DNA from: a virus
Virus genome (UHGV): UHGV-0369746
Reading direction: 5' to 3' (one strand)
Length of the DNA stretch: 25,632 nt
The notes under the pieces: generated by a model
Told to the model about the DNA's origin: nothing
Databases searched by the model: none
Seen by the model: the letters and a program-made list of their open reading frames with translations, nothing else
Translations under genes and position numbers: made by a program
Shown here: piece after piece, positions 17,717-25,632 of the stretch
Position numbering within the stretch: the first letter of the stretch is position 1
Layout: each line of letters starts with the position of its first letter

Positions 17717-18334
17717 TTATACCGGTAAAGCTTCAGGTGTATTAAGTAATTCTTTATTGGTATCAGATGCCAGGTTACCTGCAGCCAGCGGTGCCGGTGT
17801 ACCTTGCATCAGACGATCCAGCGCAGTGTCACTGCGCGCCTGTGCACTCTGTGGTGCTGCAGCCAGAATGCGGCGGGCCGTTTCCACGGTCATTCCGGGG
17901 GTTTCTGCCAGAACGCGCGCCTGTTCTTCGCGTCCGTGAGCCTCCTCACAGTTGAGGATCCCCATAATGCGGCTGTTTTCTGCCGCAACCGCAGCGGTGA
18001 TCTGCGCGTTCACGTCCGGCTGCGCCGCGCTGGCGTTTTCGCCCTCCGTCGCTGGCACCACGTCAGTAACGTCAGCCTGCGAAGCAGTGGCTGAAACAGT
18101 TGTTGATTGAGTCTCTTTGGTCATTCGCCCTCCTGAGAGACGGGATTTACGTGCATCCAGTGCATCACGCATAACGGTGATCGCATCGGTGCTGTTGACA
18201 AGTTCATCAGCCAGTCCGGCATCAATGGCCTCCTGACCGCTGTACACTGCAGCCTCGGTATCCAGCACAGCCTGCACGGACAGGCCGGTATATGCCGACA
18301 CCTTCTGCGCAAACATCCGGCGGGTTGCATCCAT
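17717..18334 (-). CDS. nu3: Putative nested scaffolding protein Nu3, in frame with the C-terminal part of C
   Basis: In lambda, Nu3 is translated from an internal in-frame start in C. Here an in-frame ATG at 18334 (MDATRRMFAQKV…) is at the equivalent position, with a second candidate ATG 6 codons downstream. Start placement rests on recalled lambda annotation; no strong Shine-Dalgarno is visible. Confidence 0.4.
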   Translation of the reverse strand: MDATRRMFAQKVSAYTGLSVQAVLDTEAAVYSGQEAIDAGLADELVNSTDAITVMRDALDARKSRLSGGRMTKETQSTTVSATASQADVTDVVPATEGENASAAQPDVNAQITAAVAAENSRIMGILNCEEAHGREEQARVLAETPGMTVETARRILAAAPQSAQARSDTALDRLMQGTPAPLAAGNLASDTNKELLNTPEALPV

Positions 18335-19048: not shown

Positions 19049-22729
<3,681 letters not shown>

Positions 22730-22755
<26 letters not shown>

Positions 22756-23275
22756 TCAGCAACCCCGGTATCAGTTCATCCAGCGCGGCTGCTTTGTTCA
22801 TGGCTTTGATGATATCCCGTTTCAGGAAATCAACATGTCGGTTTTCCAGTTCCGGAAAACGCCGCTGCACCGACAGGGGGAGCCCGTCGAGAATACTGGC
22901 AATTTCACCTGCGATCCGCGACAACACGAAAGTACAGAATGCGGTTTCCACCACTTCAGCGGAGTCTCTGGCATTCTTCAGTTCCTGTGCGTCGGCCTGC
23001 GCACGCGTAAGTCGATGGCGTTCGTACTCAATAGTTCCTGGCTGGAGATCTGCCTCGCTGGCCTGCCGCAGTTCTTCAACCTCCCGGCGCAGCTTTTCGT
23101 TCTCAATTTCAGCATCCCTTTCGGCATACCATTTTATGACGGCGGCAGAGTCATAAAGCACCTCATTACCCTTGCCACCGCCTCGCAGAACGGGCATTCC
23201 CTGTTCCTGCCAGTTCTGAATGGTACGGATACTCGCACCGAAAATGTCAGCCAGCTGCTTTTTGTTGACTTCCAT
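22730..23275 (-). CDS. nu1: Terminase small subunit Nu1
   Basis: 181-aa ORF matching lambda Nu1 as recalled (MEVNKKQLADIFGASIRTIQNWQEQGMPVLRGGGKGNEVLYD…), with winged-HTH N-terminus. Confidence 0.95.
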
Positions 23276-23299
23276 TGTTCATTCCACGGACAAAAACAG

Positions 23300-23412
23300 A
23301 GAAAGGAAACGACAGAGGCCAAAAAGCCCGTTTTCAGCACCTGTCGCTTCCTTTCTTTTCAGGGGGTATTTTAAATAAAAACATTAAGTTACGACGAAGA
23401 AGAACGGAAACA
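23300..23412. repeat. cosB: three copies of the 12-bp Nu1-binding R element (R1, R2, R3)
   Basis: Read from the sequence: 23300-23311 agaaaggaaacg (reverse complement CGTTTCCTTTCT), 23345-23356 cgcttcctttct (opposite orientation), 23401-23412 agaacggaaaca (reverse complement TGTTTCCGTTCT). An AT-rich segment between copies 2 and 3 is where the IHF site sits in lambda. Confidence 0.7.
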
Positions 23413-23452
23413 CCTTAAACCGGAAAATTTTCATAAATAGCGAAAACCCGCG

Positions 23453-23464
23453 AGGTCGCCGCCC
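23453..23464. other. cosN cohesive-end site
   Basis: AGGTCGCCGCCC at 23453-23464 is the reverse complement of the lambda 12-nt cohesive end GGGCGGCGACCT; the flanking sequence on both sides matches the lambda left and right genome ends as recalled. Confidence 0.8.
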
Positions 23465-23663
23465 CGTAACCTGTCGGATCGCCGGAAAGGACCCGCAAAA
23501 TGATAATAATTATCATCTGCATGTCACAACGTGCATCTACGCCATCAAACCACGTCAAATAATCAATTATGACGCAGGTATCATATTAATTGATCTGCAT
23601 CAACTTAACGTAAAAACAACTTCAGACAATACAAATCAGCGACACTGAATACGGGACAACCTC

Positions 23664-23897
23664 ATGTCAACGAAGAACAGAACCCGCAGAACAACAACCC
23701 GCAACATCCGCTTTCCTAACCAAATGATTGAACAAATTAACATCGCTCTTGATCAAAAAGGGTCCGGGAATTTCTCAGCCTGGGTCATTGAAGCCTGCCG
23801 CCGGAGACTGTGCTCAGAAAAAAGAGTTTCTCCTGAAGCAAACAAAGAAAAGAGTGACATTACTGAATTGCTCAGAAAACAGATCAGACCAGATTGA
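23664..23897 (+). CDS. Small basic putative DNA-binding protein, YlcI/DUF3950-like
   Basis: 77-aa plus-strand ORF; Arg/Thr-rich basic N-terminus followed by IRFPNQMIEQINIALDQKGSGNFSAWVIEACRRRL. Family assignment is from memory of a small ORF adjacent to cos/nu1 in lambdoid prophages; start codon has only a weak Shine-Dalgarno. Confidence 0.65.
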   Translation: MSTKNRTRRTTTRNIRFPNQMIEQINIALDQKGSGNFSAWVIEACRRRLCSEKRVSPEANKEKSDITELLRKQIRPD

Positions 23898-23953
23898 AGC
23901 AATTTAGATAATCGTGCAGACTACACCCCTCATATCACATGGAAGGTACTACA

Positions 23954-24364
23954 ATGGCTCAGGTTGCCATTTTTAAACAAATATTCGATAAAGTGCGAAA
24001 TAATTTAAACTATCACTGGTTTTATTCTGAACTAAAACGTCACAATGTCTCACATTACATTTACTATTTAGCCACAGAGAATATTCATCTTGTTCTTGAA
24101 AACGATAATACGGTTTTAATAAAAGGACAGGGTAAGGTTGTAAATGTAAGATTTTCAAAAAATAAATGCCTTATAGAAGCCACCTTAAAAGGATTCAAAT
24201 CAGGAGAGTTATCATTTTACGAATACAGGAAAAATCTTGCTACAGCAGGGGTTTTCAGATGGATTACAAATATCCACGAAAACAAAAGGTATTACTATAC
24301 CTTTGATAATTCATTACTCTTTACTGAGAACATTCAGAACACTACACAAATATTTCCGCACTAA
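23954..24364 (+). CDS. ybcV: DUF1398 family protein, YbcV-like moron
   Basis: Plus-strand ORF in a conspicuously AT-rich segment; motifs [36 protein letters not shown] and [27 protein letters not shown] match YbcV/DUF1398 as recalled. Start set at the second ATG (23954), 7 nt after a GGAAGG Shine-Dalgarno; the track ORF starts at 23939. Confidence 0.7.
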
Positions 24365-24623
24365 ATCATAACGTCCGGTTTCTTCCGTGCCAGAACCGGA
24401 CTCGCTGGCATGATGAAATATGTGTACCCGGTAACCCCGGTGTGCATCGTTTTTGATTATTCCCACACACTCGCGCAGAAGGAGTTCCCCGTCGGGCTAC
24501 GGTCTCTGTTAATACGGGAATACGGCGACGATACAGCGCATGATGTGTCAGGCTTGAATACCTTTATCCTTTAAAAGGGATATCAGTTAAGTTATCCCGT
24601 GTAGGGTATAAGCCATTATCAAA

Positions 24624-24647
24624 GCCACTCTGTAGGAAGTGGCTTTT
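24624..24647 (+). terminator. Candidate intrinsic terminator for the plus-strand moron transcript
   Basis: GCCACT-ctgtagga-AGTGGC hairpin (24624-24629 / 24638-24643) followed by TTTT (24644-24647). Confidence 0.45.
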
Positions 24648-24658
24648 GTAATGGCAAT

Positions 24659-24681
24659 AAAAAGCCCCGCGAATGCGAGGC
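24659..24681 (-). terminator. Candidate intrinsic terminator downstream of Rz/Rz1
   Basis: On the minus strand: GCCUCGC-auuc-GCGGGGC (7-bp stem with one G-U pair; plus 24664-24670 / 24675-24681) followed by UUUUUAUU (plus A-run 24659-24663). Confidence 0.5.
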
Positions 24682-24855
24682 TAAATCCTGGTATTTGTAA
24701 TGACTGGCTCTTATCTCAACGCAGCCCCTTACCGCGCGCAAAATGCTCAATATCAAGCATCAGCAATGAGATGTTTAATCTGGATTCACTCCAGAAGTGA
24801 GCACCACCCTGTCTACAGAGCCAGATGTGAAGGATGATGAGTAAAATTATCGCTA

Positions 24856-25323
24856 TCATCGAAGGCATTGCGTCCTGATGTATTCCTGAAGCGTTCTCAG
24901 TGCTGTTTGGTCGCGGATAATTCCGTCCCGGATACCGAGAACGTTTCGTCCAGCAACTGGAGAGAGTTCGACGGTGGCATCATTGCCCATGCCGGAGGCG
25001 CTGGAGGTTTCGGCTGAGGATGGCACAGGGCATTTTCCTTTGACGAGCACCCGACCACCATTATCAAGCTTGCGCCGAAGAGCATCATTTTCAGCTTTCG
25101 CATCAGCTAACTCCTTCGTGTATTTATCATCGAGTGCATCAGCATCACGCTGGCGCTGCTGCATGTCAGTAATGGTGGCGTTCGCCTTCTCCAGTTCACT
25201 GGCCTTGTTATCGCGCTGTTCTTTGTAGGCGATTGCATTATCACGGTAATGATTAACAGCCAATGACAGGCAGACGATGATGCAGATAACCAGAGCGGAG
25301 ATAATCGCGGTTACTCTGCTCAT
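24856..25323 (-). CDS. Rz: Spanin, inner membrane subunit Rz (i-spanin)
   Basis: N-terminal transmembrane segment [30 protein letters not shown] followed by a coiled-coil-like region; start ATG overlaps the stop of the upstream endolysin (ATGA); matches lambdoid Rz as recalled. The track ORF starts 4 codons upstream. Confidence 0.9.
24897..25103 (-). CDS. Rz1: Spanin, outer membrane lipoprotein subunit Rz1 (o-spanin), embedded in Rz in an alternate frame
   Basis: 68-aa ORF wholly inside Rz in a different frame; lipoprotein signal with lipobox (LIMVVGCSS) and Pro-rich mature part ([16 protein letters not shown]), as in lambda Rz1. Confidence 0.8.
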
Positions 25324-25632
25324 TGTTTCCCCCACAAACAGACTTCACGCTCAATCTCACGGCGAGTCATCAGTCCTTTCCATTGATTACCGCCAGCGTA
25401 TGTCCAGCGCCGTAGCTGATCACATGCGCCTTTAATATCACCCTGGTTTATTTTGCGAAGAAGCGTCGATGTTCTGAAATTGCCAGCACCCACGTTGTAG
25501 ACGAACGAGTAAAGAGCGCCGCGCGTTGTTTCCGGTATATCGACTTTGATGTACCGGTTAATTTGTCTGGCGACAGTGGCAAGGTCTTTATTCAGGAGGG
25601 CTTTGCACTCTGCTTCGGTATACGTTTTACCG
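25320..25632 (-). CDS. R: Endolysin R, C-terminal part (phage-21-type lysozyme; 5' end beyond window)
   Basis: Minus-strand translation of the window end gives …[99 protein letters not shown], matching the C-terminal half of the phage 21 SAR endolysin as recalled, not lambda R. Truncated by the window edge. Confidence 0.85.

Follow-up and report, generated by a model that had tools for sequence, protein, structure and literature searches.

Genes and cos elements of the segment

The window, that is, the whole stretch of DNA analysed here (virus genome UHGV-0369746, 25,632 nucleotides), is a lambda-like phage or prophage whose sense is reversed relative to the lambda map. Terminase A (20830-22755) and Nu1 (22730-23275) are both encoded on the minus strand. 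cosB lies between Nu1 and the cosN cohesive-end sequence AGGTCGCCGCCC (23453-23464), which was read directly and aligns with the cos regions of lambda, DLP12 and Qin; it is the reverse complement of the lambda left end GGGCGGCGACCT. The heptamer AGGACCC (reverse complement GGGTCCT) at 23488-23494 is also found at lambda 48473-48479, reportedly cosQ in work from the Feiss laboratory. A palindrome (23500-23516) lies 6 bp beyond this heptamer, and a leader of 147 bp separates it from the first of two plus-strand ORFs. This first ORF (23664-23897) is a ylcI/ynfO-type gene encoding a 77-aa protein of the DUF3950 family. The second, a ybcV/ydfO-type gene of the DUF1398 family, extends from 23954 to 24364 and encodes 136 aa, or 141 aa if translation starts at 23939; the start at 23954 is likelier, given a GGAAGG Shine-Dalgarno sequence 7 nt upstream and a RefSeq product of 136 aa. 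Both genes are enclosed by minus-strand genes, with Nu1 on one side and Rz (24856-25335), followed further on by the endolysin, also on the minus strand, on the other. The first-pass annotation, made from the sequence alone, had described two plus-strand genes opposing the late operon next to cos, and both the strand arrangement and the adjacency to cos are borne out.

The same annotation put the G+C content of the segment at roughly one third, which holds for ybcV (31.7%) and the leader (36.8%) and fails for ylcI (44%); positions 23501-24364 have 36.5% and the whole window 55%. Its description of an AT-rich accessory pair of the 'moron' type beside cos stands, as the pair varies in presence among related phages, with six alternative contents to the right of an identical cos (see below), and as ybcV, at 31.7% against 55% G+C, deviates in composition. 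No plus-strand intrinsic terminator was found after ybcV at 24365-24900, and an Rfam scan of 23200-24900 gave no credible RNA family.

Both family assignments made at first sight were recovered above the cutoffs in HMM searches. The 77-aa protein, hereafter YlcI, matched DUF3950 (PF13132) with an E-value of 4.9e-21 (74.8 bits against a cutoff of 25) and the NCBIfam model YlcI_YnfO_N (NF041551) with a score of 35.7 against a cutoff of 30, and it is 96% identical to K-12 YnfO. It is composed of a basic 13-residue N-terminal arm followed by NIRFPNQMIEQINIALDQKGSGNFSAWVIEACRRRL, which hhalign pairs with NLRWPREVLDLVRKVAEENG of Arc (pairwise E 0.022), the DNA-contacting strand being in register, so that NIRFP-x2-M-I-E-x-I...G of YlcI falls on NLRWP-x2-V-L-D-x-V...G of Arc, and two helices follow in a beta-alpha-alpha pattern. 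In the structure prediction that had been proposed for this protein, AlphaFold2 (AF2) modelled helices at residues 19-32 and 34-54, at a pLDDT of 68.7 and with no significant fold match. No significant sequence or fold match between YlcI and Arc/Mnt/MetJ-type proteins emerged from the searches run, and PHROGs returned a HicB-like match with an E-value of 0.007. Taken as a model, YlcI is probably a ribbon-helix-helix DNA-binding protein of the Arc/MetJ type, set apart from Arc, Mnt and MetJ by the basic arm at its N-terminus and by a C-terminal tail that varies; conservation among YlcI proteins covers the first 50 residues, and the tail is mosaic. Relatives of YlcI in species-representative genomes were found in Escherichia and Shigella, along with dozens of lambda control-DNA contaminants in unrelated 'species' and with no distant loci that could serve for footprinting, and within this genome set the family appears to be confined to Escherichia and Shigella.

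The protein encoded by the second gene matched DUF1398 (PF07166) with an E-value of 3.3e-43 (147 bits against a cutoff of 22) and has the fold of PDB 2HH8. Its model is confident (pLDDT 87) and contains two alpha-alpha-beta-beta-beta repeats; structural neighbour searches yielded nothing informative beyond 2HH8. The DUF1398 family is small, with 196 cluster representatives among 1.84 billion, and four distant members that were examined lie in non-phage neighbourhoods with no DUF3950 gene called nearby. The earlier statement that neither family has an established function agrees with the literature, which offers only expression changes and one overproduction report, known second-hand from the work citing it, according to which YdfO overproduction raises oxidative-stress resistance.

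The Fur box and the FNR box between cosQ and ylcI

The palindrome core TGATAATAATTATCA sits exactly at 23501-23515. It had been described as a repeat of 6-bp arms with a 3-bp spacer that matches about 13 of 19 positions of the Fur-box consensus; it is better read as a 7-1-7 element, TGATAAT-A-ATTATCA, that extends to a perfect 8-1-8 palindrome at 23500-23516. The motif scan for Fur sites succeeded, with the best alignment to the classical Fur box GATAATGATAATCATTATC (23496-23514) matching at 16 of 19 positions, the highest score in the window. The 7-1-7 Fur consensus TGATAATnATTATCA, reportedly from Baichoo and Helmann, is matched without mismatch over its 14 specified positions, and this is the sole exact match in the window. 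The palindrome was also considered as a statistically unusual inverted repeat, and this was rejected, as shuffled windows hold a mean of 1.8 perfect palindromes with 8-bp arms. The non-random part is the match to the Fur consensus together with the identity with tested Fur sites, rather than the palindrome per se.

In alignment, the DNA between Nu1 and ylcI is nearly base-for-base the same as that of the K-12 prophages DLP12 (nohD-ylcI) and Qin (nohA-ynfO) and of the lambda right end. The box in the window is the DLP12 'nohB' version, from which the Qin 'nohA' and lambda versions differ by 1 nt, at the central unspecified base, and after coordinate conversion the palindrome centre maps exactly onto the two published Fur sites nohB and nohA. 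Chen et al. (2007) predicted the 'nohB' site at 579824 with 25.3 bits, the third strongest Fur cluster given, and listed the 'nohA' site at 1634624 with 22.3 bits; a nohA oligonucleotide was shifted by purified Fur at 150 nM (PMC2189734). The same paper cites Vassinova and Kozyrev for the earlier recovery of a nohA fragment by in vivo selection for Fur binding. In strain CFT073, the Fur ChIP-exo peak P53 (1424699-1424711) was detected under iron-replete conditions (PMC10164565 supplements), and sequence comparison places it exactly on the Fur box beside cosQ of a related locus (type B below). The suggestion of a host-regulator site, which concerns the same or 1-nt-variant DNA as the published K-12 sites, is better supported than the first-pass annotation supposed, and by sequence identity the window palindrome is a Fur site.

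Further along, within the leader, lies a second element that the annotation had overlooked. The sequence TTGATCTGCATCAA at 23590-23603 is a perfect FNR box (TTGAT-N4-ATCAA) and the sole match in the window, with its centre (23596.5) 67.5 bp upstream of the ylcI ATG. The same 24-mer is an in vivo FNR ChIP-chip target at 'nohB' and 'nohA/ydfO' in K-12 (PMC1802558), and it underlies two FNR ChIP-seq peaks, one at ylcI/nohB and one at nohA/ynfO, that every data set called positive and for which the PWM score is 16.68 (PMC3688515, Tables S5, S6).

The ownership of the two boxes was resolved by comparing 126 sites with the lambda cosN-cosQ sequence, taken from viral contigs and from the other loci of the analysis. 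Six kinds of sequence lie to the right of cosQ among them. Type A (101 loci) carries the Fur box, a lambda-type leader and ylcI, and type C (4 loci) carries the Fur box, a diverged leader and a ylcI gene of 80% identity, without ybcV. The Fur box is also present in type B, the CFT073 type (11 loci; CGAGAATAATTATCA), which has a small secreted protein and a TonB-family lipoprotein without ylcI or ybcV, and in type D (3 loci), in which a convergent 127-aa gene follows immediately and no gene reads away from cos. Types E and F (7 loci) have neither the Fur box nor ylcI, so that about 6% of otherwise identical cos sites are without the box. The Fur box is thus kept 5-8 bp from cosQ in four different right flanks, with or without ylcI, and its variation falls at the uncontacted central base. 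All leaders with ylcI (types A and C) contain the FNR box, always at the same distance from the ATG, and none of types B, D, E and F has it. Between the two boxes there are 88.5 bp in the window and 96.5 bp in type C, a difference of 8 bp. As judged from this comparison of sequences, the Fur box is part of the cos-proximal module, and the FNR box goes with ylcI.

The 126 loci bear on the gene pair as well. In 34 type A loci and 4 type C loci ylcI is present and ybcV is missing, and ybcW can come between the two genes; the pairing of ylcI with ybcV is not obligate, and the two are separable within phages. A toxin-antitoxin or two-gene defence pair was considered and rejected, since the pairing is not conserved; PADLOC gave no credible defence-system match for the cassette.

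Ribbon-helix-helix proteins bind short inverted repeats upstream of their own genes, and the resemblance of YlcI to such proteins speaks for the idea, raised at first, that the palindrome is an operator of the small protein. The box is, however, kept next to cosQ in type B and type D loci without ylcI, one such box coincides with the CFT073 ChIP-exo peak, and its presence in phages without ylcI marks it as a host-factor site that need not be a YlcI operator. Moreover, it fits the Fur consensus exactly, is proven as a Fur site and stands about 150 bp away from the ylcI ATG, on the far side of the predicted FNR promoter. The operator reading is therefore abandoned as very improbable. An 8-bp inverted repeat, ATCAATTA/TAATTGAT at 23562-23569 and 23587-23594, flanks and overlaps the FNR box and, from its sequence and position, would be a better candidate for YlcI binding than the palindrome.

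Promoters and expression of the cassette

The leader downstream of the FNR box contains GACAAT on the plus strand (23625-23630), which, taken as a -10 hexamer, predicts a transcription start at about 23637-23638 and places the FNR-box centre at about -41, a class II position. Type C leaders carry GATAAT at the same position, while the neighbouring bases differ. This geometry predicts a class II ylcI promoter at GACAAT, most likely dependent on FNR. Sigma-70 consensus scans of the plus strand of the leader detected no convincing promoter. We read the lack of a plus-strand -35/-10 match as what is expected of an activator-dependent class II promoter, yet it is no proof of one.

The best promoter score on either strand belongs to a leftward element, GTGACA-16-TATCAT, which runs from 23527 to 23500 on the minus strand, matches the sigma-70 consensus at 10 of 12 positions, has its -10 within the Fur box and points toward cosQ, cosN and Nu1. 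In the lambda/Qin variant (-10 TATCAC) the element is weaker, and in CFT073 type B it cannot be recognised. Publications on K-12 put the Fur site in the nohA/nohB promoter, and the published FNR position of -85.5 implies a nohA start about 4 bp from the Fur-box centre.

Published expression data do not support simple Fur repression of the cassette, since deletion of fur in K-12 gives no derepression of ynfO, ydfO, ylcI or ybcV. In MG1655 these genes are near-silent, with very low read counts, with or without fur. No peak is listed near the cassette in the MG1655 Fur ChIP-exo data, in which mapping may hide one because the K-12 copies are near-identical repeats. In W3110, published data show that the fur deletion lowers the transcripts of ynfO, ydfO, ylcI and ybcV (log2 changes of -5.1, -2.0, -3.9 and -3.7, respectively). 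The gene ydfZ, which is FNR-activated, falls by 5.3 log2 in the same data set. Myers et al. reported an FNR peak and motif at ydfZ (PMC3688515). Under copper stress, ybcV is among the most repressed genes, along with hydrogenase genes, fdhF and dcuB, and iron-uptake genes are induced. The pattern fits that expected of an FNR-activated gene in cells with compromised Fe-S clusters, unlike that of a simple Fur-repressed gene. In K-12 grown anaerobically in glucose minimal medium, an FNR-dependent expression change is seen at neither copy (published Table S9). Ionic liquid induces ydfO more than 100-fold, and this induction together with the copper response of ybcV indicates that the cassette genes are not permanently silent. 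In CFT073, the genes on both sides of the type B box rise by 2.1-2.9 log2 on fur deletion (PMC10164565 supplements), with the plus-side genes beside the box most derepressed and the terminase-operon gene C_RS07370 up by 2.1 log2.

The reading that we favour, and hold to be moderately probable, is that the segment is a Qin-type ynfO-ydfO (ylcI-ybcV) accessory cassette of lambda-like phages, under two separable host-regulator sites that combine FNR activation with gating by Fur. The Fur box 6 bp from cosQ would bind host Fe2+-Fur over the leftward promoter-like element that leads into cos and Nu1, and the FNR box with the downstream GACAAT would constitute a class II FNR-activated promoter for ylcI. 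This promoter would also transcribe ybcV, as no terminator was found in the 56-bp gap between the two genes. Expression in a lysogen would then occur at low oxygen, when FNR is active, with Fur modulating the output by iron. YlcI might act as an autoregulator or regulator, and YbcV/YdfO as the effector, a small cytoplasmic protein with an orphan two-repeat alpha/beta fold. A feoABC-like logic of this kind, 'FNR activation masked by Fur', has already been proposed for the K-12 copy nohA: Category 4 of Myers et al. (2013), FNR activation masked by Fur repression, contains nohA alongside feoA and eight further operons (PMC3688515). Several results count against the favoured reading: the Fur-box centre is about 130 bp ahead of the predicted ylcI start, a distance at which Fur would not act by simple occlusion; K-12 showed no FNR-dependent change in glucose minimal medium; the MG1655 genes are near-silent with no Fur peak listed; no plus-strand sigma-70 promoter and no terminator after ybcV were detected; and the two genes do not always occur together.

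The distance of about 130 bp is one of several points in favour of a rather unlikely reading in which the Fur box governs the leftward cos/Nu1 promoter alone and the cassette is under FNR and other factors. The best promoter-like site on either strand is the leftward one with its -10 in the box, the literature puts the Fur site at nohA/nohB, C_RS07370 of the CFT073 terminase operon is derepressed without fur, and the box is retained in type D, which has no gene directed away from cos. On the other hand, this -10 is degraded in lambda and Qin and lost from recognition in the CFT073 type, nohD and nohA are not derepressed in fur-deleted K-12, the most derepressed CFT073 genes are those on the plus side of the box, and an iron-regulated terminase would be of no obvious gain to a lysogen.

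The silence of the K-12 copies raises a further reading, that the Fur and FNR sites are bound with high affinity yet regulatorily inert, carried along with the conserved cos and ylcI modules, and that the cassette is essentially silenced, for example by H-NS acting on its AT-rich DNA. The absence of an FNR-dependent and of a clear Fur-dependent change in K-12, the very low read counts, the low G+C content of ybcV and the H-NS occupancy reported at the neighbouring ybcV/ybcW region are in line with it. We nevertheless regard inert sites as improbable: the Fur box is retained in four unrelated flanks with variation at the uncontacted central base, diverged leaders keep the FNR-box spacing unchanged and type C has an improved -10, the genes beside the box are derepressed in CFT073, and the responses of ydfO to ionic liquid and of ybcV to copper stress speak against permanent silencing.

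The position of the box beside cosQ in four unrelated flanks, one of them without a gene reading away from cos, also allows a very doubtful role in which Fur bound 5-8 bp upstream of cosQ would serve as a roadblock that slows the incoming terminase or blocks leftward transcription across cos. If it were true, cosQ packaging termination or the integrity of prophage cos would respond to the iron status of the host. Under the favoured reading of FNR activation with Fur gating, anaerobic, iron-limited growth as in the gut is the condition in which to seek a phenotype of DUF3950 and DUF1398.

Occurrence and closest known systems

The closest known system is the Qin locus nohA-ynfO-ydfO of K-12 (b1548, b4533, b1549), which has the same order and strands, with a Nu1 homologue on the minus strand, the 77-aa YnfO on the plus strand and YdfO directly after it, also on the plus strand. 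Its intergenic DNA is nearly identical, including cos, the FNR box and the Fur box, the central base of the latter being G in Qin and A in the window. The YbcV-like protein of the window has diverged from Qin YdfO (about three quarters identity, by eye from the alignment), and the window is an apparently complete phage with full terminase and structural genes, whereas the Qin locus is a cryptic remnant. The DLP12 locus ylcI-ybcW-ybcV-borD of K-12 and the lambda right end (48109-48502) share the leader and the ylcI core with the window, lambda having its Fur box at 48452-48466 and its FNR box at 48364-48377. DLP12 and lambda have an insertion of ybcW, on the opposite strand, between ylcI and ybcV, and bor comes after these genes; the window has neither ybcW nor bor, and its YlcI has a different C-terminal tail. 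Reference lambda carries an unannotated ylcI gene beside cos.

In its proposed control logic, the segment resembles feoABC, where FNR and Fur sites also occur in one control region and with whose feoA nohA shares Category 4. It differs in having 88.5 bp between its two sites, with the Fur box well upstream of the predicted promoter, and FNR activation and Fur repression of the cassette are proposals. For the K-12 copies of the cassette, the two gene families and both regulator sites had been described before; new here are the corrected anatomy of the control region, the assignment of the Fur box to the cos module and of the FNR box to ylcI, the dismissal of the palindrome as a YlcI operator and a condition in which to seek function. 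The top-scoring 'nohA/nohB' sites on K-12 regulon maps are accordingly features of the lambda cos-proximal region.

In practical terms the gain is a modest one, a corrected reading of a very common segment that lambda shares. Of 5426 complete E. coli genomes, 4898 contain a match to some portion of the 1.58-kb segment, the median number of places being two per genome; in 1013 of the 5426 a match covers at least 80% of the segment, and in 518 records the best match has at least 99% identity. The segment also matches 259 phage records, lambda included.

Fur-like sites in the window and Fur-box occupancy in related prophages

In phages of the CFT073 type, the genes that adjoin the Fur box (1655-1981 and 2345-2665 in the CFT073 prophage locus L006, with like content in a second phage locus of this type, L007) have two products: a small secreted protein (MKIRNILAISLATSSFSCLA...) and a lipoprotein whose annotation is TonB family protein. 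Iron-related cargo in these phages adjoins a Fur site that is bound in vivo. FNR ChIP-seq summits have been reported at K-12 positions 579825 and 1634625 (PMC3688515, Table S9). Compared with the K-12 coordinates, both summits fall on the Fur box, that is, on the sites known as 'nohB' in DLP12 (579824) and 'nohA' in Qin (1634624), whereas the FNR motif is 85-95 bp off. Many further 'FNR peaks without FNR effect' in the same table are situated at Fur-regulated promoters; this pattern may reflect either cross-reaction or co-occupancy.

A scan of the whole window showed that, besides the main Fur box, only one site scores at least 15/19 against the Fur consensus: the minus-strand 19-mer GATAATTTTACTCATCATC at 24833-24851 (15/19), immediately beyond the Rz stop and within a small ORF. 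This 19-mer does not match the 7-1-7 Fur core. The only perfect 8-1-8 palindrome in the window other than that of the main Fur box is GCGCAGTGTCACTGCGC (17821-17837), which lies within the structural gene region.

Putative control elements of ylcI and ybcV

The ylcI leader carries a perfect 8-bp inverted repeat, ATCAATTA / TAATTGAT (23562-23569 and 23587-23594), with 17 bp separating the arms. Its right arm shares bases with the left FNR half-site, and the repeat is kept in the leaders of type C, one of the ylcI-carrying kinds of sequence found right of cosQ. This repeat is a candidate operator for YlcI. At the 3' end of ylcI, a PdhR-like site, AACAGATCAGACCAGAT (23876-23892), is the counterpart of the K-12 PdhR SELEX site AAcaGGTcagACCAgaT, which has been reported between ynfO and ydfO; the window site has one additional mismatch. 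AACAGATCAGACCAGAT may be a separate control point for ybcV.

Small ORFs between the cassette and Rz

The 24432-24565 segment, between the accessory region and Rz, contains a 54-aa ORF (..PVCIVFDYSHTLAQKEFPVGLRSLLIREYGDDTAHDVSGLNTFIL) and is found again in types D, E and F, which lack ylcI, despite clearly different neighbouring content; it is a conserved element. Further on, a hydrophobic 50-aa ORF on the minus strand (24716-24868), labelled a hypothetical protein in RefSeq, shares 13 nt with the stop-codon end of Rz. It is conserved in further lambdoid loci and may encode a small membrane protein that closes the lysis cassette.

Annotation of lambda and contamination of public assemblies

In the lambda reference (NC_001416), no CDS is annotated for the 64-aa YlcI homologue (48109-48303, complement), and the DUF1398 gene lambdap78 carries the label 'head protein', which is that of PHROG 413. 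This label is almost certainly wrong, because the lambdap78 product is a non-essential accessory protein. This lambda segment is present in dozens of 'genomes' of unrelated species, including Streptomyces, Pseudomonas, Cohnella, Flavobacterium and others (loci L133-L168), often on contigs of ~3.5 kb or ~48 kb. These are assemblies contaminated by lambda control DNA, and the protein match lists are likewise inflated by such contamination.
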